Assembly: GCA_026396275.1 (NCBI GenBank)
Contig: JAPLXC010000019.1
Location: forward strand, 355-64,354
Reading direction: 5' to 3'
Length of the DNA stretch: 64,000 nt
Source: Candidatus Moraniibacteriota bacterium
GTDB taxonomy: Bacteria > Patescibacteriota > Minisyncoccia > Moranbacterales > JAPLXC01
Positions 5,743 through 61,052 of this stretch are shown here, piece after piece. Numbering within the stretch: position 1 is the stretch's first letter; each line of letters begins with the position of its first letter. A program made the position numbers and the translations under genes. Under the pieces are notes generated by a model. It searched no databases. It was not told the DNA's origin and saw only the letters and a list, made by a program, of their open reading frames with translations.

Positions 5743-6855
5743 ATGGTCATGTCTCAAAATCAGCCCGACAAAAAACTGCTTTTCACCGTCTTTGCACTGA
5801 TAATATTTGGTTTAGTTATGATCGCCAGCGCCGGGGTGGTGTATTCGCAAACCCGCTTTGGCGACCAGTATTATTTCTTCAAGCATCAGCTTTTTTTTGG
5901 CGTTATTCCCGGACTGGTGGCGCTTTATATTTTCCAGAAAATTGACTATCATTTTTGGAAAAAGATGGCAACGCCCTTTTTCATTCTTTCCCTGGTCTTG
6001 CTGGTCTTAGTGTTTGTTCCCGGCATTGGAGCCAAGGCCTACGGCGCCAGCCGCTGGATTCAATTAGGTTCATTTTCCTTTCAGCCGGCAGAGATGATGA
6101 AATTGGCAATCGTGCTTTACTTGGCGGCCTGGCTGGAAAGCCGCGGATGGAGAAAGGCAAGGGATTTTTTTGAAGGTCTTCTGCCCTTTTTGGTTATCAT
6201 GGGTGCTGTGGGCTTTCTGATTATTAAACAGCCAAATATAGGCACATTGGGAGTAATTATCCTGACTTCCCTTACTATTTATTTCATTGCCGGAGCGCGG
6301 CTCTCTCATATGATCTCTCTAATTTCCGCCGGGGTGCTGCTTTTGGTAGTTCTTGTTAAAATAGCGCCTTATCGTTTTAGCCGCTTTCTTGTCTTTCTCA
6401 ATCCCCAGCTTGATCCCCGAGGAATCGGATATCAGATCAATCAGGCGCTTTTAGCCATTGGCTCGGGAGGGATTTTTGGACTAGGACTGGGACATAGCCG
6501 CCAAAAGTTTAATTATCTTCCCGAGCCAACTGGGGATTCAATTTTTGCTATAATAGGAGAAGAGTTAGGCATTATTGGAGCGGGTCTAATTATCCTCCTT
6601 TTTGTTGCTCTGGCTTTTCGGGGATTAAAGATTGCCGCCAGTGCTCCTGATAATTTTGGAAGGTTAGCAGCCGGCGGAGTTACTGCTTGGATTGTTATTC
6701 AGGCCTTTGTTAACATTTCAGCCATCACGGGAATTATTCCGCTTACGGGCATTCCGTTGCCGTTTATCAGCTACGGCGGAACCTCACTGATGTTCGTAAT
6801 GGCAGGGGTCGGGATATTGCTTAATATTTCAAAACAAGCAAAAATGGAATCATAA
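5743..6855 (+). CDS. ftsW: SEDS-family peptidoglycan glycosyltransferase FtsW (FtsW/RodA/SpoVE)
   Basis: Polytopic membrane protein with the typical N-terminus and a C-terminal GIIPLTGIPLPFISYGG motif. Sits in ftsW-murG-murC synteny. Confidence 0.85.
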   Translation: MVMSQNQPDKKLLFTVFALIIFGLVMIASAGVVYSQTRFGDQYYFFKHQLFFGVIPGLVALYIFQKIDYHFWKKMATPFFILSLVLLVLVFVPGIGAKAYGASRWIQLGSFSFQPAEMMKLAIVLYLAAWLESRGWRKARDFFEGLLPFLVIMGAVGFLIIKQPNIGTLGVIILTSLTIYFIAGARLSHMISLISAGVLLLVVLVKIAPYRFSRFLVFLNPQLDPRGIGYQINQALLAIGSGGIFGLGLGHSRQKFNYLPEPTGDSIFAIIGEELGIIGAGLIILLFVALAFRGLKIAASAPDNFGRLAAGGVTAWIVIQAFVNISAITGIIPLTGIPLPFISYGGTSLMFVMAGVGILLNISKQAKMES

Positions 6856-6928: not shown

Positions 6929-8035
6929 ATGCGTATTGTTCTAACCGGCGGCGGAACAGGCGGGCACATATTTCCTCTTGTTGCCGTAGCCCAAGAGTTA
7001 AGAAAAAAACTGAGGGAAGAAGCAGAGATTCTCTACGTGGGGTCGCGGGGAGAATTGGAAAAGGAGGTTATGGTCAAAGAAGGGATCCCGGCCAAGCACG
7101 TTTTGAGCGGCAAAAAGCGGCGTTATTTTTCGCTGCAGAACTTTTTGGATTTTTTTAAAATCCCCCTTGGATTTATTCAGTCGCTCTGGATACTTCTTTG
7201 GTATATGCCGGATGTAGTTTTTTCCAAAGGAGGATATGCGTCTATTCCAGTAGTGCTGGCGGCCTGGCTCTACCGCATTCCGGTAATGATTCACGAGTCC
7301 GACGCGGTTCCCGGAACCGCTAATCAGATACTGGCCAAATTTTCCCAGCGGATAGCCGCGGCCTATCCTTCAGCGGAGCAGTACTTTCCGCACTCCCAAG
7401 TGGTGCTTACCGGCAATCCGGTCCGCTCTGAAGTGTCCAAAGGAAGTGCTCATTCCGCCCGGACGAAATTTGAATTTACTGAATCAAAACCTGTGATATT
7501 GGTAATGGGAGGAAGCCAGGGAGCTCAAATCATCAATCGGGCAATTGTTAAAATTCTTCCGCGTCTTTTGGAGCGCGCTCAAGTTGTTCATCAGACCGGA
7601 GAAAAAAATTATGATGAAGTGGTTCATTTAGCGGCAGAATACGGAATTAAAGCGGGAAGAGAGGGATACGCGCCGGTAAGATTTTTAGGCATAGATGACT
7701 TAAAAAATGTTTACGCGGCAGCCATGCTTGTCGTCAGCCGGGCGGGAGCTAATTCCATCGCTGAAATTGCCGCCAATGGAAAAACGGCTGTTCTTGTTCC
7801 TCTGGAAAATTCTGCCAATGATCATCAGCGAATGAATGCTTATGAAATTGCGCGGATTGGTGGTGCGCTGGTGCTGGAAGAAACTAACTTAGGCGAAAAT
7901 ATTTTACTGGATAAAATAATAATGCTTTTGGACGATGAAGAGTTGCGAGGCGCGATGGGCCAAAAAATTCGCGTTTTCCATCACTCCGATGCGGCGGAAA
8001 AAATCGCGGACGGGTTAATTGAACTAGTTCACTAA
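6929..8035 (+). CDS. murG: Undecaprenyldiphospho-muramoylpentapeptide beta-N-acetylglucosaminyltransferase MurG
   Basis: MRIVLTGGGTGGHIFP N-terminus and the GT28 C-terminal domain. Confidence 0.9.
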   Translation: MRIVLTGGGTGGHIFPLVAVAQELRKKLREEAEILYVGSRGELEKEVMVKEGIPAKHVLSGKKRRYFSLQNFLDFFKIPLGFIQSLWILLWYMPDVVFSKGGYASIPVVLAAWLYRIPVMIHESDAVPGTANQILAKFSQRIAAAYPSAEQYFPHSQVVLTGNPVRSEVSKGSAHSARTKFEFTESKPVILVMGGSQGAQIINRAIVKILPRLLERAQVVHQTGEKNYDEVVHLAAEYGIKAGREGYAPVRFLGIDDLKNVYAAAMLVVSRAGANSIAEIAANGKTAVLVPLENSANDHQRMNAYEIARIGGALVLEETNLGENILLDKIIMLLDDEELRGAMGQKIRVFHHSDAAEKIADGLIELVH

Positions 8036-14333: not shown

Positions 14334-14453
14334 ATTTCCACTTTCAAATTCACAAACTAGCACTACCATAGATATATGGAAGAAAATATAAAAGCCCCTC
14401 ATCTTTGACCTGGGAGGCTTTTTTTGGTATGATTATTGGGTTATAATTGGTAG

Positions 14454-14511
14454 TGTCATCCCGAACTTAATTCAGGATCTAATTAGATTCCGGATCGAGT
14501 CCGGAATGACA
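14454..14511. mobile_element. MITE-like hairpin element family A (TGTCATCC...GATTCCGGATCGAGTCCGGAATGACA), copy 1, in the secA 5' UTR
   Basis: Terminal inverted ends TGTCAT/ATGACA with two internal stem-loops. Related copies at 19262, 46473, 52606, 54436 and 55265. Confidence 0.75.
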
Positions 14512-14520
14512 AATTTCATT

Positions 14521-17187
14521 ATGTCCCTATTTAAAAAAGTTTTTGGCTCTAATGAAAGAGAACTGAAAAAACTTCGGCCGCTAGTGGAAAAAATCAACGT
14601 GCTGGAGCCGGCTGTTAGCAAGCTTTCCGACGAAGAGCTGAAAAATAAAACAACTGAATTTAAAGAACGTTTAAATCCGCCAGCCAGTGGAGGCGAGGCG
14701 CTGGATGATTTGATTCCCGAGGCCTTTGCGGTAGTTCGTGAAGCCGCCAAACGTGTTATTGGCGAGCGGCATTTTGACGTGCAACTTATGGGCGGAATTG
14801 TGCTTCATCAAGGAAAAATCGCCGAGATGAAAACCGGTGAAGGAAAAACACTAGTATCAACGCTTTCGACATATTTAAACGCGCTTACCGGAAAGGGAGT
14901 GCATATCGTGACAGTCAATGATTATCTGGCCAAGCGTGACTGCAATTGGATGGGAGCAATATATCACGCTCTGGGAATTTCCACCGCCTGCATCGTTCAT
15001 GACACCTCTTATCTTTATGAACCAAAAATTGTTGATGCCGATGAAGTAAGCGTGGAAATGGAAAACCTCAAACCCGTTTCGCGCCGCGAGGCCTACAGTG
15101 CCGATGTTACTTACGGAACCAATAATGAATTCGGTTTTGACTATCTTCGCGACAATATGGTTCCGGGTTTAGATCAAATGACCCAGAGAGAATTAAGCTA
15201 CGCTATTGTGGATGAAGTGGATTCTATTTTAATTGACGAAGCGCGTACTCCTCTTATTATTTCCGCTCCCGACACGGAATCCACTAAGCTCTATCGTGAA
15301 TTCGCGCGAATCGTTCCGCGGCTGAAAGTCAAAGATGACTACGAAGTGGATGAAAAAATGAAAGCGGTAACTCTCACTGAAAAAGGCATTACTAAAGTAG
15401 AAGAACTGCTGGGAATCGGAAATATTTACGAGCCGGGAAAAATAACTTATGTTCATCATCTGGAGCAGTCGCTAAAAGCCAATGTTATTTTCAAACTTGA
15501 CCGCGATTACGTTGTGAAAGACGGGCAGGTGATTATCGTTGACGATTTCACGGGGCGCTTGATGCATGGCCGCCGCTACTCCGAAGGACTTCATCAGGCC
15601 ATTGAGGCCAAAGAAGGAGTAGAGGTGCAAAAAGAATCGCGCACCTTGGCCACCATTACTTTTCAAAATTATTTCCGGATGTATGGAAAACTAGCGGGAA
15701 TGACCGGAACAGCGGTAACCAGTGCGGAGGAGTTTTCCAAAGTGTACAAACTGGAGGTGATGGAAGTTCCAACCAACAAGCCAATGATCCGCAAGGATTT
15801 TCCTGACGTTGTGTACAAAAGCGAAGAGGGCAAATTCAAGGCGATTGTTGAGAAAATAAGGGAACTTCATCAGGCCGGCCAGCCGGTGCTGGTGGGAACC
15901 ATCGCCATTGAAAAATCAGAGTATTTGAGCGAACTTCTTTCCCGGGAGGGAATTACGCATGAGGTTTTAAACGCCAAGCACCATGAAAAAGAAGCTAATA
16001 TTGTGGCCAAAGCAGGGCAAAAAGGAGCAGTAACTATCGCCACTAACATGGCTGGGCGGGGTACTGATATTAAACTGGGAGAAGGCGTAAGAGAACTGGG
16101 CGGACTTTGCATAATTGGAACCGAACGCCATGAAGCCCGCCGGATTGATAACCAGTTGCGGGGACGCGCTGGCCGCCAAGGCGATCTGGGCGCGTCTCAA
16201 TTTTACGCTTCGCTCGAAGATGAATTGATGCGCCGATTTGGCGGTGATAAGCTGCACAATATGATGAATACCCTAGGACTACCCGAAGATCAGCCGATTC
16301 AGAACGCCATTATTTCCAAATCAATCGAAAGTGCGCAGTCAAAAATAGAAGGATTTAACTTTGATATCCGCAAACACGTTTTGGATTATGACGATGTGAT
16401 GAATAAGCAGCGCGAAGTTGTCTACAAAAAGCGACGCCAGATTCTTGAACTGGAGGAAACAAAAAACGAAATTTTCAACTTTCTTTCGGAGGAGCTGGAA
16501 AAAATTGTTTCCCTCTATTGTACCAAAGAGGATTACCAATGGAATACCGAAGGCATTATTGCGGAAGTCAGCACAATTTTTCCTCTTAACGGCGATGATA
16601 AAAAACAATTAGATATAATCCGGGACGATAAGTCAAAAGACGATGCCGAAAAAATCAATTCCCTGATTGAATATCTTTTAGGACAGGCGAAGAAAGTTTA
16701 CAATCAAAAAGAGAAGGAAATTGGAGAAGAAACAATGCGCCAGGTTGAGAAAATGATAATTCTCCAAACAATCGACATGCTTTGGATGAACCATCTGGAC
16801 GAGATTGATTATCTGCGCCAAGGGATAGGACTGCGCGGTTACGGCCAGAGAGATCCTTTGATTGAGTACAAAAGGGAAGCGTTCAATATGTTTTCCCACT
16901 TAATGGATAATGTCCGGTCCACCATTGTGCGGACAATATTCAGAATTAGCCCGGTCCGGCGGGAAGGCGAGCAGCGTGAATTAACGGAGCGGCAGAACTT
17001 ACAGTTTAAGGGAGCAAATGATGCGGTAGAACAGTTTGGAGCGGCTAAGGAAATGCAGTCCTCTTCAGGCGGGGAAGCAAAAAGTGAAGCCAAACAGAAG
17101 CCAATTATAAATAAAAACAAAGTGGGCCGCAACGATCCCTGCCCGTGCGGGAGTGGCAAAAAGTATAAGAAGTGTTGTGGAGCGTAG
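14521..17187 (+). CDS. secA: Preprotein translocase ATPase SecA (start revised to [18 protein letters not shown])
   Basis: DEAD-like motor motifs and a C-terminal zinc finger [14 protein letters not shown]. The ATG listed at 14506 lies inside the MITE-like element. Confidence 0.9.
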
Positions 17188-17197
17188 GGATAGAAAT

Positions 17198-18136
17198 ATG
17201 GCATACAATCCAGAAAAACCATATAAAAATCAAATTTTAGGGCTGATTAAGAAAACCTGGCATACGCCCTATGTTTCTGTCCAGGAAGGAACATACACGG
17301 TGTTTAAGAGAAAATTTGATTATTCTGAAATCGATCATACCGATGGGATAGGTACGAAAGGAATTTACCACTGGGGTAGACGCACTTTTCGGAACGCAGT
17401 TTTAGACGCCTTAGCGATGAATTTGAATGATTTAGCAATGGCGAGGGCGATCCCATATAAACTTCAATGTCATCTTATTGTGCCAAAAGATGATAACAGA
17501 GCAATATTAGAGATTATGAAGAATCTGGTAGCGGAGTGCAAAAAACGCAATATTGTGATTACCGGCGGGGAAACGTCTATTCAGAATAATATACAAGGTC
17601 TTGACATCAGTCTGACAGTTAGTGGTTTTGTAAAAAGCGAGAAGCAAAATCAGTTTCGGGTTGGTGATGTATTGGTAGGCTTGGCAAGTAATGGAGTGCA
17701 TTCAAACGGTTTTACAACGGTACGAAAGACGCTAGGTAACAGATTTTCCGAAGCATTCACAGAGCCAACAAAGATATATATAGAAATGCTACAAGCCATT
17801 CAGGAAAAGTACGTTGTTCATGGCATGATGCATATAACAGGCGGTGCTTTCACAAAGCTGAAAAGTTTGCTTTCTAAAGCCGATGCGATTATTACGAAAA
17901 ATCATTCATTGAAACCTCAAGCTATATTCAGGAAGCTATATACACACGGGATCACAGATAAAGATATGTACAGGACTTTCAACTGTGGAATAGGGTTTGT
18001 GTTGTCAACCCCCAAAGATGACGCATTAAAAGTTGTTTCCGGAATAAAAGGCGCAGATATAATCGGAAAGGTAATACCAGGGACGGGCAAGGTGAGAATT
18101 ACCTCAATTTTTAGCGGTAAAGAGATAAAACTTTAA
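17198..18136 (+). CDS. AIR synthase-related protein (PurM-like)
   Basis: DGIGTK motif and NLNDLAMARA...ITGGETS PurM-family N-domain. Start chosen at MAYNPEKPY; the listed 17153 start overlaps the secA end. Confidence 0.6.
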   Translation: MAYNPEKPYKNQILGLIKKTWHTPYVSVQEGTYTVFKRKFDYSEIDHTDGIGTKGIYHWGRRTFRNAVLDALAMNLNDLAMARAIPYKLQCHLIVPKDDNRAILEIMKNLVAECKKRNIVITGGETSIQNNIQGLDISLTVSGFVKSEKQNQFRVGDVLVGLASNGVHSNGFTTVRKTLGNRFSEAFTEPTKIYIEMLQAIQEKYVVHGMMHITGGAFTKLKSLLSKADAIITKNHSLKPQAIFRKLYTHGITDKDMYRTFNCGIGFVLSTPKDDALKVVSGIKGADIIGKVIPGTGKVRITSIFSGKEIKL

Positions 18137-18142
18137 GAGAAT

Positions 18143-18187
18143 TACTGCGGGAGCGGTAAGAAGTATAAGAAGTGCTGCGGAAAATAA
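18143..18187 (+). pseudogene. Duplicated secA 3' fragment (encodes [14 protein letters not shown]), in frame directly after the purM-like stop
   Basis: Matches secA 17140-17187 ([15 protein letters not shown]) apart from synonymous changes. Confidence 0.7.
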
Positions 18188-18196
18188 AGTGTAGTT

Positions 18197-18664
18197 ATGA
18201 AGATTATCCAAACAGTTGCAATAATCCAAAAAGGAGATGAAATTCTTCTCGGCATGAAAAAGCGCGGTTTTGGAGCTGGAAGATGGAATGGTTTTGGCGG
18301 GAAATTAAAAGAAAATGAAAATGTAATTCAAGCAGCGCAAAGGGAGCTTAAAGAGGAAACCGGGATTGATACAGAAAATTTAATTGAAATGGGCATTATT
18401 GAATTTGAATTTAAGAGGAATCCTGATATCCTTGAAGTTCATTTTTTAAAAGGAACAGATTTTTCCGGAGCGCTGGTAGAAACAGAAGAAATGAAACCCG
18501 CTTGGTTTAAAATTAATGAAATCCCCTACGACTCAATGTGGCCGGATGATAAATTCTGGCTGCCGCTGTTTCTGGAAGGAAAAAAATTTTGCGGTAAATT
18601 CTTATTTGATAATTATAATAAAATCATTAAACATAAACTTGAGATCGTAGATAAGTTACAATAG
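18197..18664 (+). CDS. NUDIX hydrolase (MutT-like)
   Basis: Nudix box GGKLKENENVIQAAQRELKEETGI. Confidence 0.8.
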   Translation: MKIIQTVAIIQKGDEILLGMKKRGFGAGRWNGFGGKLKENENVIQAAQRELKEETGIDTENLIEMGIIEFEFKRNPDILEVHFLKGTDFSGALVETEEMKPAWFKINEIPYDSMWPDDKFWLPLFLEGKKFCGKFLFDNYNKIIKHKLEIVDKLQ

Positions 18665-18757
18665 CTGTTTCCATATATCAATATATGAAAAGACAATACC
18701 GCATTCTAGTATACGGTATGATGGACAAGTAAGGAATAAAGGGTAAAAAAGAAAAGC

Positions 18758-19261: not shown

Positions 19262-19331
19262 TGTCATTCCTGCCTCTGAGCCGGAATCCAGAACAAATTT
19301 TTCTAGATTCCGCATCAAGTGCGGAATGACA
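19262..19331. mobile_element. MITE-like element family A copy 2
   Basis: TGTCATTCCTGCC...GATTCCGCATCAAGTGCGGAATGACA. Relative to copy 1, one stem base pair has a compensatory change (GG/CC to GC/GC). Confidence 0.75.
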
Positions 19332-19345
19332 TTAAAAAACCCCCC

Positions 19346-19579
19346 ATGACTTACAAAGGCGGAGAATATTCATTCAATGAATTATTAAAAGAGCTGAAAC
19401 AGCGGGCTAAAAAAGAATTGATACAATCCGACTACGAGTACCTGGAGTTAATTGACGGACTAATCGAAGAAAAGAAAAGCCAGGGTTATTTTTCGGAAGA
19501 CGAGGATATGGAGCAACTCAAAAGCGATCTGGAAATTATGTGGCCGGAAGTGGAAAAATATTTGCAGGATGAAAAATAG
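19346..19579 (+). CDS. Hypothetical small acidic protein (start revised to MTYKGGEYSF)
   Basis: The listed ORF start at 19319 lies inside the MITE-like element. Confidence 0.4.
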   Translation: MTYKGGEYSFNELLKELKQRAKKELIQSDYEYLELIDGLIEEKKSQGYFSEDEDMEQLKSDLEIMWPEVEKYLQDEK

Positions 19580-19636: not shown

Positions 19637-21346
19637 ATGAATATCAGGAAAAAAATCAAGATTAAATTTGCAGGAGTTTTATTTCTTGGCATAATTGCCG
19701 GGCTGATTTCGTATCCTCAAGCAATGAAATTCGCGCCGCCGTTTTATAATGCGCTTAATAAACTTAAGATAAATTTAGGCCTGGATCTTCAGGGCGGAAT
19801 ACATTTGGAATATAAAGCCGATGTTTCCAATGTTGAAAAAAGCAAAGTTAACGATGCTCTTCAGGGGGCGCAGGACGTGATTGAGCGACGCATTAATGCT
19901 TTTGGCGTCGGCGAACCGTTAGTGCAAACAGCGCAATCAGGAGGAGAACGTCGGATTGTTGTAGAACTGCCCGGAGTGAAAGACATTGAAGAGGCAAAAA
20001 AAAGAATAAAAGACACGCCTTTTTTGGAATTTAAAGAAGAGACCAGTCCCGAGGAATTGGCCAAAACCCAGGAATTATTCAATTCCTTGAATGAGCAGAC
20101 AAAAAAACAGGCAGAGGATATCCTTCAGCGCGCGCTGGCCAGTGAAAATCTTGAGGACTTGGCAAAGCAGTACAGTCAGGATCCCGGCTCTAAGGACCAG
20201 GGTGGTGATCTGGGTTTTGTGAAGAAAGGGATTTTTGTTCCTGAATTTAACAAAATTTTATTTGAAGAAAATTTAAAGCCGGGCGAAATTTACCCCAAGC
20301 TGGTTGAATCCCAATTCGGCTGGCATATTATTAAATTTATTGAATCGCGCGGGGAAGGGGATAATCTGGAGGTGCATAGCCAGCATATTCTTTTTGCCAA
20401 GCAGTCGGCGGAGATGGTTCCTGATTTGAAATATAAATCAACCGGGCTTTCAGGAAAAAATCTCAAAAGTGCCGCGGTGACCTTTACCAGCCAGGGCTTG
20501 AGTGAGCCGCAGGTTTCCCTGAAATTCGACGCAGAAGGGACAAAACTTTTCGCGGAACTTACTAAAAAAAATCTGGGGAAAACCATCGCTATTTATCTTG
20601 ATGGCACAGTTATTAGTGCCCCAGTGGTCCAGGCGGAAATCGCCAATGGTGAAGCTGTTATCACGGGAGATTTTTCCCAGGAGGAAGCAAAAGAATTGGC
20701 TCAACGTCTCAATGAAGGAGCGCTTCCGGTACCACTCACGTTAGTCGGCCAGCAAAGCGTGGAAGCGTCACTGGGAGCCGAATCTCTGAAAAAAAGTTTT
20801 GTGGCTGGCCTGGTGGGACTGGCGGCGGTGATGATCTTTATGATTTTTTATTACCGGTTCCTGGGAGTGGTGGCAGTGATAGCTCTTCTTATTTACACCT
20901 GCATAATGGTTTCCATCGTAAAATTATCCGGAACTTTCACTCCCTGGCCGATTACTCTTACCCTTTCCGGAATCGCCGGCTTTATTCTTTCCATCGGAAT
21001 GGCGGTTGATGCCAATATCCTGATATTTGAAAGAACTAAAGAAGAAATCCGAAGGGGGAGAGGCATTATGAACGCACTGGACGAAGGATTTAAGCGCGCC
21101 TGGACGTCCATCCGCGACGGCAATGTTTCTTCCATTATTACCTCTTTCATTTTAATTATGATGGGAACCGGCTTTGTTAAGGGATTCGCCGTGATGCTGA
21201 TTGTCGGAGTGCTGATTTCGATGTTCACGGCAGTGACGATTTCAAGAACGTTGCTTAGGGTTTTGGTGGGAGAGTGGATAATGGATAAGCTGTGGATGAT
21301 GGGGATTTCTGAAAAATCAAAAATCAAAAATCAAAATGAAAAATGA
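19637..21346 (+). CDS. secD: Protein translocase subunit SecD with an inserted parvulin-like (PpiC-type PPIase) segment
   Basis: SecD TM core. Periplasmic region contains [37 protein letters not shown]...[18 protein letters not shown]...HSQHILF. C-terminal KSKIKNQ heptamer insert. Confidence 0.85.
21311..21340. repeat. (AAAATCA)x3 heptamer repeat in frame at the secD 3' end
   Basis: Read directly. An inverted partner ttttgatatttgattttttatttttgatat lies at about 21385-21415. Confidence 0.85.
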
Positions 21347-22823: not shown

Positions 22824-22897
22824 GGGCACATAGCTCAGTTGGTTAGAGCGCTGCATTCACATTGCAGAGGTCACTGGTTCGAGTCCAGTTGTGCCCA
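22824..22897 (+). tRNA. tRNA-Val (anticodon CAC)
   Basis: GGGCACA/TGTGCCC acceptor stem, GCTC-AGTTGGTT-AGAGC D arm, CTGCA-TTCACAT-TGCAG anticodon arm, ACTGG-TTCGAGT-CCAGT T arm. CCA is not encoded. Confidence 0.85.
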
Positions 22898-28949: not shown

Positions 28950-30020
28950 ATGAAAAGCCCATCTCTTACCAAGGAGGCGCAAAAAGAAGAAAAAGATGTT
29001 TCTGGCGGTGATTTTTGCTTTCAAAAAGCCCTAAATGAGGTTACTTCCGGCTTTCCGGAACGTTCTCGCAGCATAATTTTGATGCGTTACGGGATCAGCC
29101 AGAAGAATCCGAAAACGCTTGAGGAAATCGGCAATTCCTACCGCGTTACCCGGGAAAGAATACGGCAGATAATCCGGGAAGTTATCAAAAAAGTTGAGGA
29201 GAAGAAAGAAAATCCCATTTTGCAGGAGGTAAGCAGAAAAATAACATTTACAGTAAACGAAAAGAGTGGTATAATAAAGAAAAAAGAACTGATAAAACTG
29301 CTTGGTAAGGGGAATGAAAAAGAGTCCGGAGCGGTTGAATTTTTCTTGGATTGCCTGAAAGACCCGGTAATGGCGGAAACCAAAGGCGAAATGGAAGAGT
29401 CCTGTATTCGGATTGAGTTTGACTTGGATTATTGGAAAAAAATAAAAGACATTGCCAAAAACGTTTTGGAAGCCGAGGGGAAACCAATTAATGACGATGA
29501 GTTGGCGAAGAAAATTTTACTCCAGGTTCCAGCCATAACCCGGAAAAAACTGTTTGATTACCTGGCTCCCTCAAAAGAAATCGTAAAAAATAATTTTGGA
29601 AAGTGGGGACTGGATAATTGGCCGGAAATTACTCCTAAAGGAACACGGGAGAAAGCGTATCTCATGCTCAAAGAAAGCGACCGGCCGCTTCATTTCAGAG
29701 AAGTCGCGTCTCTTATTGATCATTACAAGCTTAGCAAGAAAAAGACCCATCCCCAGACGGTTCACAATGAACTTATCAAAGACAGCCGCTTTGTGTTAGT
29801 GGGAAGAGGGGTTTACGCTCTGTCTTCCTGGGGATACAAAAAGGGAACAGTCAAGGAAGTGCTGGAGGAAATTTTAAAAAATAATAAAGGGCCGATGAAA
29901 CGCGGGGATATACTCAATCAGATACTCAAAGTGCGCCAAGTCAAAAAATCGACGGTAATAATCAATCTTAATAATTTTTTTCTGAAAACTGGCAGAGATG
30001 AGTACACCATTCGCCGGTAA
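28950..30020 (+). CDS. DNA-binding protein with a sigma-70 region-4-like HTH and a HARE-HTH (RNAP delta-like) domain
   Basis: LEEIGNSYRVTRERIRQI (region 4). PLHFREVASLID...THPQTVHNELIKDSRFVLVGRGVYALSSWGY (HARE-HTH pattern). Confidence 0.55.
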   Translation: MKSPSLTKEAQKEEKDVSGGDFCFQKALNEVTSGFPERSRSIILMRYGISQKNPKTLEEIGNSYRVTRERIRQIIREVIKKVEEKKENPILQEVSRKITFTVNEKSGIIKKKELIKLLGKGNEKESGAVEFFLDCLKDPVMAETKGEMEESCIRIEFDLDYWKKIKDIAKNVLEAEGKPINDDELAKKILLQVPAITRKKLFDYLAPSKEIVKNNFGKWGLDNWPEITPKGTREKAYLMLKESDRPLHFREVASLIDHYKLSKKKTHPQTVHNELIKDSRFVLVGRGVYALSSWGYKKGTVKEVLEEILKNNKGPMKRGDILNQILKVRQVKKSTVIINLNNFFLKTGRDEYTIRR

Positions 30021-31416: not shown

Positions 31417-33168
31417 ATGTCAGATGTAACATTCTTCGCCAAAACCAATTTCCGCAACGAGGAGCAGACATTTGGAATTAAAACCGACGACCGGCGCCGG
31501 CATATGTATGTTATTGGAAAAACCGGAATGGGGAAAACTAATCTTCTGGAGCACATGGCGATTCAAGACATCAAAAACGGACACGGCATAGCCTATGTTG
31601 ATCCCCATGGCGACACGGCGGAAAAAATAATTAAAACCATTCCTTCAAACAGAATAAACGATGTCATATATTTTAACCCGGCTGACCAGGATTATCCGAT
31701 TGCTTTCAATGTGATGGAAAAAGTTGATCCGGAATGCCGCCATTTAGTAGCTTCCGGACTGGTAGGCGTATTCAAAAAAATCTGGGCGGATTCCTGGGGG
31801 CCGAGATTGGAATATATTTTAAGAAACGCGATTCTTTCCCTTCTTGAATATCCCGGAGCGACACTTCTGGGGGTCACCAGAATGCTGGTTGATAAAAATT
31901 ACCGCATTCGGGTGGTAAATAAATTAACCGATCCGGTAGTAAGATCTTTCTGGGTGGATGAATTCACCAAATGGAATGAGCGGGTTCTGCAGGAAGTCGT
32001 TTCTCCGATTCAAAATAAAGTTGGGCAGTTTTTATCAAGCGCGCTTATCAGAAATATAGTAGGCCAGACCAAATCTTCCTTTGATATAAGGGAAATTATG
32101 GATAATAAAAAAATACTTATCCTTAATCTTTCCAAGGGGAGAATCGGGGAGGATAATAGCGCGCTTCTGGGAGCGATGATGATAACGAAGATCCAGCTCG
32201 CCGCCATGGCGAGGATTGATATTCCCGAAGAAGAACGGAAAGATTTTTATCTTTATGTCGATGAATTTCAGAATTTTGCGACGGAATCCTTTGCCAATAT
32301 ATTGTCCGAAGCGAGAAAGTACCGGCTTAATTTGACTTTGGCCAATCAATATATCACGCAAATTGACGAAATAGTGAGAGATGCCATTTTTGGAAACGCG
32401 GGGACGCTTGTTACTTTCCGGGTAGGGGCGGTTGACGCGGAATTTATGGAAAAAGAATTTGAGCCGATATTTATGCTGAACGATCTAGTTAATCTTCCAA
32501 AATACAACATTTATCTTAAATTGATGATAGACGGAATAGCCGGCGATGCGTTTTCAGCTGTGACGCTTCCGCCAATTGACATCAGAGATACCGAAGGAAA
32601 TGCCGGCAAAGTGATAAAAGTTTCCCGCGAGCGATACGCGTCAAGCCGGGCCGAAGTTGAGGATAAAATTAACCGCTGGAGCGGGATGCTGCCGGCAGAA
32701 ACAGTACAAAAAATAGAGAGGCCAAGCAACCAGAAAACTGAAGAACTAAGCAGTCCTGTAGAGCCAGTGGTAGTTGGACGCGAGGCAAGCCAAGTGGCTA
32801 AACAGCTATTTAACGCCGTCTGCGACACCTGCGGTGTGGGAATTCAGGTTCCCTTTGAGCCGGACGGGAGAAGGCCCACGTTTTGCAGAGAGTGTCTGAA
32901 AGATTACCAGCGGACGATGGCGCGGGGCAAAGACCAGGAATCAAGAATTAGAAATCCGGAACTAGTGAGAAAAAATAATATAGACAGGAATAAAGAAAAA
33001 GAAGTTAAGAAAACAGAATTGAAGGCCTATATTCCGCAAGAAAACCCCCTAAAACTTTCTCAAATTCAGCACGTGGCTCCGAAAAAATTTCAGTCCACCC
33101 GCAAAAAGCCGGAAGTGAATCTGGAGGAAGTGAGGAAGTTGATTAAGGAAAGCAGAAATGAAAATTAA
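31417..33168 (+). CDS. FtsK/HerA-superfamily P-loop ATPase (VirD4/TraG coupling-protein-like) with a C-terminal CxxC...CxxC zinc ribbon
   Basis: Walker A VIGKTGMGKT at residue ~36, VDPHGD, Walker B LYVDEFQNF, ARKYRLNLTLANQ, and a terminal CDTCG...CRECL ribbon. No TM segment. Confidence 0.6.
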   Translation: MSDVTFFAKTNFRNEEQTFGIKTDDRRRHMYVIGKTGMGKTNLLEHMAIQDIKNGHGIAYVDPHGDTAEKIIKTIPSNRINDVIYFNPADQDYPIAFNVMEKVDPECRHLVASGLVGVFKKIWADSWGPRLEYILRNAILSLLEYPGATLLGVTRMLVDKNYRIRVVNKLTDPVVRSFWVDEFTKWNERVLQEVVSPIQNKVGQFLSSALIRNIVGQTKSSFDIREIMDNKKILILNLSKGRIGEDNSALLGAMMITKIQLAAMARIDIPEEERKDFYLYVDEFQNFATESFANILSEARKYRLNLTLANQYITQIDEIVRDAIFGNAGTLVTFRVGAVDAEFMEKEFEPIFMLNDLVNLPKYNIYLKLMIDGIAGDAFSAVTLPPIDIRDTEGNAGKVIKVSRERYASSRAEVEDKINRWSGMLPAETVQKIERPSNQKTEELSSPVEPVVVGREASQVAKQLFNAVCDTCGVGIQVPFEPDGRRPTFCRECLKDYQRTMARGKDQESRIRNPELVRKNNIDRNKEKEVKKTELKAYIPQENPLKLSQIQHVAPKKFQSTRKKPEVNLEEVRKLIKESRNEN

Positions 33169-52573: not shown

Positions 52574-52605
52574 GGCATGTTAAGTTTTATTTTTATGTCA
52601 TTCCC

Positions 52606-52690
52606 GCGAAACTTGTCCTCGAGAAATCGGGGAGCGGGAATCCAGAAAACTTTTTTCTTTACTGGATTCCGCATCAAGTGCGGAATGACA
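52606..52690. mobile_element. MITE-like element family A copy 3 (long loop variant), in the divergent corA/yidD spacer
   Basis: TGTCATTCCCGC...GCGGGAATCCAGAAAAC...GATTCCGCATCAAGTGCGGAATGACA. Confidence 0.75.
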
Positions 52691-54435: not shown

Positions 54436-54504
54436 TGTCATCCTGAACTTGTTTCAGGATCTAATGATATCGGATTAGATTCCGGATCAAGTCCGGAATG
54501 ACAA
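54436..54504. mobile_element. MITE-like element family A copy 4, in the hrcA 5' UTR
   Basis: TGTCATCCTGAA-cttgtt-TCAGGATC...GATTCCGGATCAAGTCCGGAATGACA. Confidence 0.75.
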
Positions 54505-54511
54505 GCCAAAA

Positions 54512-60122: not shown

Positions 60123-61052
60123 ATGAAAGTAATTAGTGGTAACAGCAATCCCGATCTGGCACTTGCCATTGTGGAGTATTTGGGAATATCGTTAACCGAT
60201 GCAACCATTTCCAGATTTAGCGACATGGAAATCAGGGCAGAAATCAATGAGAACATTCGAGGCAAGGATGTGTTCGTCATCCAGTCAATCTGTACACCGG
60301 CCAATGAGTATATAATGGAACTTCTCATTATAATCGATGCGCTCGTGCGTGCTTCGGCAAAACGCATAACGGCGGTAATACCATACTATGGTTATGCCCG
60401 TCAGGATCGGAAAACCGAATCCAGAGCGCCGATTACCGCGAAACTTGTGGCTAACTTGATTACCGCTGCAGGCGCCAACCGCGTGCTTACTATGGATCTT
60501 CATGCTGGACAAATCCAAGGATTCTTTGACATACCAGTTGATCATCTTTATGCCTCTACCGTGCTCTTGGATTATCTAAAACGGAACTTCTCGGGCCATC
60601 TGGTCATTGTTTCACCTGACGCTGGGGGAGCAGACCGAGCGAGAGCGTACGCTAAACGGCTCAATGCAGATCTAGCTGTCGTTGACAAAAGGAGAGAAGA
60701 GCCGGGCAGGTCAGAAATACTGAACATTATTGGAGAGGTGTCAGGTAAAACGGCCATTATCATCGATGATATGGTGGATACAGCGGGGACTATTTGCAAC
60801 GCTGCTCAAGTGATCGCGGAGAAAGGAGCGCAAGCGGTATATGCTTGCTGCAGCCATGCAGTGCTGTCTGGCCCTGCTGTTCAAAGAATCAGCCGATCAG
60901 CCATTGAACGATTGATTGTGACTGACTCAATTCCACTTTCGGAAAGTGCCAAGACACTGGGGAAGATTACAGTGGTTTCTGTAGCGGAGCTTCTGGCAAA
61001 AGCCATACATTCTGTCCACAATTCCGAGTCATTAAAACCATTGTTCGTTTAG
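60123..61052 (+). CDS. prs: Ribose-phosphate pyrophosphokinase
   Basis: Typical Prs N-terminus and PRPP-binding loop VIVSPDAGGADRAR...IIDDMVDTAGT. Confidence 0.9.
   Translation: MKVISGNSNPDLALAIVEYLGISLTDATISRFSDMEIRAEINENIRGKDVFVIQSICTPANEYIMELLIIIDALVRASAKRITAVIPYYGYARQDRKTESRAPITAKLVANLITAAGANRVLTMDLHAGQIQGFFDIPVDHLYASTVLLDYLKRNFSGHLVIVSPDAGGADRARAYAKRLNADLAVVDKRREEPGRSEILNIIGEVSGKTAIIIDDMVDTAGTICNAAQVIAEKGAQAVYACCSHAVLSGPAVQRISRSAIERLIVTDSIPLSESAKTLGKITVVSVAELLAKAIHSVHNSESLKPLFV

Follow-up and report, generated by a model that had tools for sequence, protein, structure and literature searches.

What placed a second copy of the last codons of secA behind a neighbouring gene in a Moranbacteria genome? 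The question is raised by contig JAPLXC010000019.1 of a Candidatus Moraniibacteriota bacterium (GenBank assembly GCA_026396275.1), of which positions 355 to 64,354 of the forward strand were analysed; this stretch of 64,000 nucleotides (nt) is referred to as the window and coordinates given without a locus name are its own. In the window secA is followed by a single gene of the PurM family and this gene is followed by a second stretch encoding the end of the SecA C-terminal zinc finger. From comparison with loci of other genomes of the candidate phyla radiation (CPR; Patescibacteria), designated here by L numbers, we conclude that the window insertion is one case of a recurrent hot spot and not a one-off, and that it probably arose by one crossover, at a recombination hot spot in the secA tail, with a circular gene unit that brought a replacement tail.

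The secA tail repeat and the inserted gene

The features around the 3' end of secA are the following.

14405-14433, plus strand: promoter-like site 5' of secA, TTGACC-17-TATGAT with TG (a consensus match only)
14506-17187, plus strand: secA, 893 aa, with a complete SEC-C zinc-finger tail; TAG stop at 17185-17187
17146-17187, plus strand: tail copy 1, the working secA end, in the putative role of attL; TGC GGG AGT GGC AAA AAG TAT AAG AAG TGT TGT GGA GCG TAG
17188-17197, plus strand: 10-nt spacer, with an AGGGA ribosome-binding-like motif 5' of the ATG
17198-18136, plus strand: PurM-family (AIR-synthase-related) gene, 312 aa, product beginning MAYNPEKPYK
18137-18145, plus strand: GAGAATTAC, the insert side of tail copy 2, not derived from secA
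18146-18187, plus strand: tail copy 2, probably a displaced and untranslated secA end, in the putative role of attR; TGC GGG AGC GGT AAG AAG TAT AAG AAG TGC TGC GGA AAA TAA

The SecA product carries the Pfam domains SecA_DEAD, PP_bind, P-loop_SecA, SecA_SW and SEC-C (residues 875-892; PF02810, 2.5e-10) and is 100% identical to a protein from a Candidatus Moranbacteria metagenome-assembled genome (MAG), the next relatives being at 78%. A repeat finder paired 17146-17181 with 18146-18181, i.e. 36 nt at a spacing of exactly 1000 bp, of which 31 are identical (86%) with identical runs of 8 nt and 14 nt. All five differences are third-position and synonymous, as would follow if each copy had served as a working or replacement end of secA up to the time of the event; for random substitutions a uniform model gives five synonymous changes out of five with a probability of 5e-5, and a model with transitions only gives 0.002. 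A preliminary description of the locus, made from the sequence alone, had reported a second secA tail fragment differing by synonymous changes and two residues, and this is confirmed, although the identity is 12 of 14 residues (P to Y and A to K) and not 15 of 16 as stated there. It was also right that a chance low-complexity match is unlikely, as the two copies are the only matches to a codon-degenerate 30-nt tail pattern in the 64-kb window and none is expected (100 shuffles). The tail is Lys-rich and A-rich, which is the one point in favour of chance or of an assembly artefact, but we regard the probability of either as negligible: zero chance matches are expected, a collapse or mis-join in assembly is not to be expected because the copies differ at five positions, and the same architecture is present in independent NCBI, ENA, JGI and Logan assemblies.

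The stop codon of the PurM-like gene (TAA, 18134-18136) is followed in frame (18137-18187) by GAG AAT TAC and then by the codons of copy 2, as the preliminary description had pointed out. This position would have a function if copy 2 were functional coding sequence, giving by read-through, or before a recent nonsense mutation, a PurM-like protein with a C-terminal SEC-C domain; both here and in L001 the fragment continues the reading frame of the PurM-like gene, and in the window its peptide is intact. Such a fusion or read-through product was rejected as highly improbable on two grounds, namely that the copy lies in another frame in L086 and L003 and that no SEC-C domain is listed among the best 120 of 3056 PurM-like homologues, whose lengths cluster at 309-319 aa. 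Moreover, the copy is degraded with internal stops in L001 and L003, and in the window it is without a start codon and its first zinc ligand, i.e. the first Cys of the CxC pair, is missing; it fails the four-ligand SEC-C test (PF02810, CxC...C(C/H)) with Y-C...C-C, whereas secA's own copy matches.

The PurM-like open reading frame (ORF) had been described as overlapping the end of secA. This arises only under a mechanical GTG start at 17153; the alignments to the closest homologues listed (about 310 aa) span 99-100% of a product beginning MAYNPEKPYK, which places the start at ATG 17198, 10 nt past the secA stop. The protein contains the motifs DGIGTK, GGET, HSNG, HITGG and FNCGIG and matches Pfam AIRS (PF00586; 1.5e-10, 41.9 bits against a gathering threshold of 24) and AIRS_C (PF02769; 1e-18, 68.4 bits against 23.1). 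As to whether it is PurM-, ThiL-, HypE- or SelD-like, PurM is by far the best family (NCBIfam TIGR00878, 161.1 bits; HypE, ThiL and SelD models all 29 bits or less) and all PDB matches are PurM (best 3.5e-35), but the score lies under the equivalog cut-off of 236.35 and, although both AIRS domains are present, the protein is about 30 residues shorter at its N-terminus. It also matches PHROG 1207, a phage auxiliary-gene family, at 5.9e-33, and none of the PADLOC defence families matches it. Judged by its sequence it is a member of a distinct family of about 310 aa in CPR and DPANN genomes, annotated only as 'AIR synthase-related', which has 3056 matches across CPR and DPANN-labelled MAGs (named members are from Kaiser-, Yanofsky- and Nealsonbacteria, the loci being labelled Patescibacteria or DPANN). 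Since the family is so large and conserved, a lone copy in a CPR genome is normal, and the oddity previously seen in a solitary purM homologue falls away; a PRPP-synthetase-like ORF lies at 60123-61052 in the window. Most family members are found away from secA, and 29 more distant loci have the PurM-like gene with no secA tail nearer than 5 kb. The closest homologue among the best 120 of the 3056 (93% protein identity) is that of L001.

Repeats of other kinds accompany the PurM-like gene in two further loci. L116, another CPR contig, has a 139-nt direct repeat (83-84% identity) at 202-340, 731-869 and 1915-2053, 3' of each of three consecutive genes including the PurM-like gene, which is a different kind of junction repeat. 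In L029 a 102-nt element resembling a miniature inverted-repeat transposable element (MITE), with terminal inverted repeats GGGACTGTTGCCGAATG, is present at 589-690, 6016-6117 and 7916-8017, one copy being directly 3' of the PurM-like gene.

The slot behind secA and its displaced tails

To the right of copy 2 the window continues as follows.

18197-18664, plus strand: NUDIX1 (AGTGTAGTTATG), the gene directly 3' of tail copy 2; a slot accessory gene, with 55% identity to a NUDIX gene in the L168 array and absent from L167
18758-19240, plus strand: NUDIX2, a conserved gene closing the slot; orthologues in L167, L168 and L170 (51-66% identity)
19319-19579, plus strand: small conserved ORF 5' of secD, probable start ATG 19346; counterparts hyp83 (L167) and hyp79 (L168)
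19637-21346, plus strand: secD, the conserved right flank of the slot

For comparison we used ten loci whose SecA proteins are close relatives; two of these (L169 and L171) end too soon after secA for the slot to be counted. The eight usable loci share the order MurB-HPF-(hyp)-SecA, then small genes on the same strand, a conserved NUDIX gene and SecD/SecF or MreB. Between secA and the core NUDIX gene lie 0-9 small genes, all on the secA strand, and in the window the slot has a G+C content of 0.33-0.40 (NUDIX1 0.33-0.36) against about 0.45 in secA and secD. The contents of the individual slots are:

L239 and L167: empty; PurM-like gene absent
Window: PurM-like gene, NUDIX1
L166: NUDIX, aminotransferase, racemase; no NUDIX2 orthologue detected
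L241: hyp, aminotransferase, pyrophosphatase, racemase
L240: hyp128, DUF2268, racemase, NUDIX; ThyA follows a second, probably core, NUDIX
L168: eight genes

In L167 secA is followed directly by the orthologue of NUDIX2, so that, with L167 as reference, the PurM-like gene and NUDIX1 are additions in the window. Comparison with the secA loci of relatives, as the preliminary description had proposed, thus did yield loci without the PurM-like gene (L167 and L239), and its view that the gene was inserted by recombination stands in so far as a single gene was inserted, with incoming DNA that brought its own secA tail: the site is empty in L167, and in L001, L003-5 and L086 the gene is flanked by tail sequence.

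Which of the two tails came in with the gene was addressed through the ends of other secA genes. Among the 120 closest SecA proteins 65 end in CCGK, 28 in CHGK, 10 in CCGA and three in CHGA. All five loci with an ending other than CCGK and with enough downstream sequence contain a displaced CCGK-type remnant downstream, whereas no remnant was found in the three CCGK loci (0 of 3), and because of this division the minority endings look like replacement tails. The positions of the remnants relative to the secA end are:

Window: +980, after the PurM-like gene
L241: +372, with one small gene between new and old tail
L166, L239 and L240: +45, +53 and +61, respectively, with no intervening gene

From these sequences it is more likely that tail copy 2, with its CCGK ending, which is the majority one in Moranbacteria, is the displaced earlier end of secA. 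The part of the earlier interpretation in which the donor supplied the fragment behind the gene is therefore probably to be reversed; it is the present GCG TAG and the spacer that are linked to the donor, as their occurrence in L003 indicates (see below). The window remnant (18157-18188) and that of L240, 61 nt after secA, match at 30 of 32 nt while the secA genes themselves are only 72% identical, so the two remnants are either recently related or constrained at the DNA level.

Breakpoints fall within the tail itself. L170 and L171, from different samples, have no mismatch over 9631 nt, which include almost all of secA, and nothing in common from 9632. The break lies in the last four secA codons (AAATGT|TGTGGAAAATAA versus AAATGT|CATGGAGCATAA), so that the genes end ...AAATGT|TGT GGA AAA TAA and ...AAATGT|CAT GGA GCA TAA, and a different MazG-like gene follows each. 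In L086 secA is broken right after TGTCAT and continues into foreign sequence. Weak A-rich tail-like matches at distal L170 junctions were not used as evidence because composition makes them unreliable.

Several other elements were noted in and around secA and its slot. Some Moranbacteria SecA proteins have an insertion of 7-9 residues within the zinc finger, e.g. CPCGAKKPDGTPxKYKHCCGK, with loss of the PF02810 match (P0134, P0138, P0153, P0158, P0172, P0185, P0186, P0201, P0214, P0216, P0233, P0235 and P0236). A palindrome, ATACCGCATTCTAGTATACGGTAT, lies 5' of NUDIX2 (18696-18719) and was flagged by the terminator scan on the minus strand; TATTC(T/C)AGTATAC motifs similar to it lie 5' of NUDIX genes in L168 (13585-13640 and 14154-14202), and these sequences may be operators or terminators. 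A palindromic element of 60-95 nt, resembling MITEs or repetitive extragenic palindromes, has at least four copies in the window (14455-14511, 19262-19331, ~52596-52690 and ~54440-54505), its terminal inverted repeats being TGTCATYCC...GGAATGACA and its inner hairpin GATTCCG[G/C]ATC[A/G]AGT[C/G]CGGAATC. Of these copies one has its end within the start codon of secA, and two others precede hrcA and the small ORF before secD, respectively; relatives lack the element 5' of secA, and Rfam has no match to it. A TraG/VirD4-type coupling protein with a treble-clef zinc finger (31417-33168) and a sigma-70 region 4/HARE-HTH protein (28950-30020) are also encoded in the window.

Tail arrays, integrases and phage-like elements at the same site

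In a related CPR lineage (L001, L003-5 and L086) a tail copy is present at almost every gene junction and always on the secA strand. The genes between the copies are GNAT, NUDIX, PNPOx, SET, VOC-like, PurM-like and GMP-synthase-like, and in all these loci the PurM-like gene bears tail sequence on both sides. At full length the copies are about 45 nt; old ones are degraded, e.g. PCGFGNKA*KCHGA* and ENPCGWLLKQ*KCHGS* (asterisks, stop codons), and the SET ORF of L001 terminates inside one such degraded copy. Several array genes start at an ATG or GTG overlapping the stop of a tail copy (ATGA, GTGA), which is the geometry of translational coupling. In L001, a contig without secA, four or five units of one gene each follow one another with tail copies on either side, and the order of the PurM-like and SET genes is opposite in L001 and L003, the SET proteins being 49% identical between the two loci. 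When 1.68 Mb of CPR loci was scanned with a strict degenerate tail pattern (AARAARTGYYRYGGNNNNTRR, at least 16 of 17 positions) there were 34 matches on the plus and two on the minus strand, and more than one match per locus occurred only as a secA tail with downstream copies or as the tail array of L001.

The copies behind different genes share features that set them apart from working secA tails. On the left they have GA(A/G)AAT + CCG/TAC and have lost the first Cys codon, the member of this class in the window being GAGAATTAC and its counterpart in L001 GGAAATTAC; GAAAATCCG is found in L086 (after the PurM-like gene), in L003 (after GNAT) and in L005 (as an extra copy). TAG AAG TGT CAY, with an in-frame stop, likewise recurs in cassette tail copies and not in working secA tails. 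The last codons of tail copy 1 with the spacer (GCGTAGGGATAGAAAT) are linked to the PurM-like gene in other genomes: the window spacer is homologous to the spacer 5' of the gene in L001 and L003, the junction GCGTAGGG(A)TA(G)AAATATG (GCG TAG GG(A)TA(G)AAAT ATG) also precedes the gene in L003, where the gene is not adjacent to secA, and ATAGAAATATG is common to the window and L001 in the same position. The present secA end and the spacer travel with the PurM-like gene. Between the window and L001 the DNA is about 90% identical over the stretch that begins in the tail and spacer 5' of the gene and closes with the tail copy behind it, and unrelated outside.

A structured leader 5' of the NUDIX cassette was seen in L003 (5470-5545) and L005 (1140-1350), the NUDIX ATG lying within a tail-like TGTTATGGGAGA. 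It contains an inverted repeat, CCCGAGGG...CCCTCGGG, is partly duplicated in L005 together with an extra tail copy and has no Rfam match; in the window and array loci the only Rfam family found is one tRNA (22824-22897), with none in the secA-slot region.

The tail segment also appears to be used by integrase-bearing elements elsewhere. IMG/VR viral contigs scanned with the tail pattern gave 67 loci, mostly SEC-C proteins or host secA, and about ten isolated tail fragments without a long upstream ORF. Seven of the eight such fragments tested (L174, L173, L201, L189, L212, L221 and L178) adjoin a convergent tyrosine integrase gene ~100-150 nt away, while that of L175 has a D5-primase-like neighbour gene and not an integrase. 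The integrases have PF00589, SAM_3 and Arm-DNA-binding domains and form one family (48-87% mutual identity). An int gene beside an attP with a replacement 3' end is classically arranged in this way. By sequence these fragments are probably attP sites of temperate elements that integrate into the secA 3' end of non-CPR hosts; as the nearest annotated relatives of the integrases are those of Paenibacillus phages (38% identity), the hosts are probably Firmicutes-like. No DNA match to the L201 integrase and attP region was found among annotated phages, the integrases being only 38% identical.

In CPR-type contigs phage-like elements start right after the secA terminator in six cases:

L169, 9668-11718: SLT_3 and HTH_36 genes
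L191/L242/L243: ERF, ParB, ParB-methylase, TerL (L242/L243 only) and structural genes
L185, L208, L211 and L233: AAA_24 (Sak4-like), Rep_O-like and ParB-like genes

The SecA proteins of four of the six end in GA. No integrase was found in these elements in the parts examined, which take in the 23.4-kb contig up to its last 1.7 kb. The presence of the elements at this site, and the place of PurM among known families of phage auxiliary genes (PHROG 1207), suggest that the window insert could be what is left of a larger prophage or island integrated at the secA tail, internal deletions having spared the PurM-like gene and two att scars. We think this unlikely, since the insert is one compact gene to which non-tail DNA adds only 10 nt at one end and 9 nt at the other, since the four or five single-gene units of L001 are unlikely products of repeated clean deletions, and since the CPR PurM-like family was not found on viral contigs, where the best matches are distant PurM proteins with 31% identity or less.

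The proposed crossover and its relation to known systems

The secA transcript probably extends through the inserted gene, which has no evident promoter or terminator of its own, and serves for its expression. This we infer from the promoter-like site 5' of secA and from the terminator scan, which found no terminator-like site between secA and the inserted gene and none before 18538. As to its arrival, the last ~45 nt of secA, i.e. the SEC-C zinc-finger codons, would be a recombination hot spot in Moranbacteria and related CPR. A small circular unit, consisting of a secA-tail look-alike, a short spacer bearing a ribosome-binding site and the PurM-family gene, would have integrated through one Campbell-type crossover in the resident tail, the outcome being an intact secA with a hybrid or replacement tail (17146-17187) followed by the 1-kb unit, while the other tail copy would remain as an untranslated scar (18146-18187) directly 5' of the former neighbour, NUDIX1. 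A circle is proposed because a single crossover between circle and chromosome yields a gene flanked by direct repeats of the target. The model would also give an intact secA, a zinc-finger peptide encoded in both copies, altered last codons in new tails, a series of remnants from repeated events and units able to change order.

Several observations weigh against this model. The nearest insert-free genomes are only 72-74% identical to the window in secA DNA, and neither a strain-level empty-site allele nor a circular junction was seen. In most Moranbacteria arrays tail remnants are present at secA-proximal junctions only. The left edge of the duplication is not constant, being TGCGG in the window and at least 60 nt in L166, L239 and L240. 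No second tail copy (attR) was found in the parts of the phage-like elements examined, within the limits given above. A recombinase gene was found neither in the insert nor in the tested window ORFs nor in the Pfam tables of the related loci (those of L003, L166-L171 and L239-L241 have no PF00589); the scan of unannotated window ORFs returned TraG/VirD4-like, sigma-70/HARE-HTH, PaaX-like and sugar transferase proteins. A tblastn search with the seven tail-linked integrases found no homologue in the CPR loci compared.

The agent of the crossover is thus a matter of candidates. A site-specific recombinase acting in trans is a reasonable one, which we advance tentatively; counted in its favour are the precise junctions, the uniform orientation, the cassette-side features common to different cassettes and the integrase-linked attP-like sites elsewhere. 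The other, possible though held with somewhat more doubt, is a homology-driven process over the conserved 30-45 nt, promoted by RecA or by phage annealing proteins of the ERF or Sak4 type. Taken further, the exchange could be purely homology-driven, the SEC-C codons being so conserved that divergent CPR genomes have no other island of DNA identity at which RecA or phage annealing proteins could produce crossovers, with the repeats as by-products and neither a dedicated site nor a dedicated recombinase. This explanation is a serious one even if we do not favour it: no integrase was found in any CPR locus compared, the phage-like elements abutting CPR secA genes encode ERF or AAA_24 (Sak4-like) near the junction, the window copies have identical runs of 8 and 14 nt, and because the left edge varies homology-driven events fit at least as well as a fixed crossover point. 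It does not lead one to expect the derived features shared by cassette copies (the lost first Cys codon, GA(A/G)AAT + CCG/TAC, and TAG AAG TGT CAY), the strictly uniform orientation of the copies or the use of the same tail segment as a tyrosine-integrase-linked attP-like site in other bacteria.

In CPR, single genes and phage-like elements have landed repeatedly at the SecA zinc-finger codons, and the closest known kind of event is integration into the 3' end of a gene. Phages, integrative and conjugative elements (ICEs) and islands integrate into the 3' ends of conserved genes (tRNA, tmRNA and protein-coding genes), the attP carrying a replacement 3' end. As in such integrations, direct repeats of the target 3' end (17146-17187 and 18146-18187) flank the insert and the secA ORF is intact, successive events leave a series of remnants, and viral contigs with non-CPR hosts carry an isolated secA-tail segment beside a tyrosine integrase; unlike them, the insert in the window comprises one gene (1 kb) and no integrase, and none was found in the CPR loci compared. 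Composites of the staphylococcal cassette chromosome (SCC), such as SCCmec, at the 3' end of rlmH (orfX), and the cis-mobilizable elements (CIMEs) that accrete at the 3' end of fda in streptococci, are likewise tandem units behind one housekeeping gene, with junctions that keep the last ~15-20 nt of the gene. SCC and CIME units are multi-gene and are moved by Ccr serine recombinases or ICE integrases, whereas the units in the secA slot are often single promoterless genes and the repeat comprises up to ~45 nt of coding sequence. In the literature searched, the coverage of which is incomplete, we found no description of secA as an att site or of such cassette arrays in CPR.

With integrons the slot shares compact, co-oriented and apparently promoterless single-gene units behind a fixed site, a repeat at each junction and a varying order of units. 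In contrast to integrons, the secA-tail repeats have no GTTRRRY core and no attC-like hairpin (eight folds, i.e. four tail copies with flanks on both strands, gave minimum free energies of -1.2 to -6.7 kcal/mol and z-scores of -1.48 to +0.90, no fold being clearly better than those of its shuffled sequences), no IntI is adjacent, HPF and MurB being the genes upstream of secA, and the anchor site lies within the coding sequence of an essential gene. It is nevertheless conceivable, although we consider it doubtful, that CPR run an integron-like system of gene capture anchored on the SecA zinc-finger codons, in which promoterless genes with degenerate tail sites are shuffled and depend on the secA transcript for their expression. 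The shuffling would be carried out by a recombinase acting in trans, or by annealing proteins of the ERF/Sak4 type from the phages that have this site in common with the cassettes. If this were true, a site nearly identical across phyla would be a universal landing pad for exchange between distant lineages, and if the movement of cassettes is enzyme-directed it would represent a second architecture of the integron kind, in which attC and IntI have no part.

The genomes of CPR (Patescibacteria) are tiny; little is understood of how accessory genes enter and leave them, and descriptions of their mobile-element systems are few. A hot spot in the last codons of an essential, universally conserved gene, at which each event brings its own replacement tail, would give a simple marker for recent acquisitions in thousands of MAGs. 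The genes in the slot (NUDIX, MazG-like, CYTH, HAD, GNAT, SET, PNPOx, PurM-like and similar) encode small enzymes that act on nucleotides or metabolites. Should the tail segment indeed be used by integrase-bearing elements of other phyla, secA would join the short list of protein-coding genes that serve as att targets.

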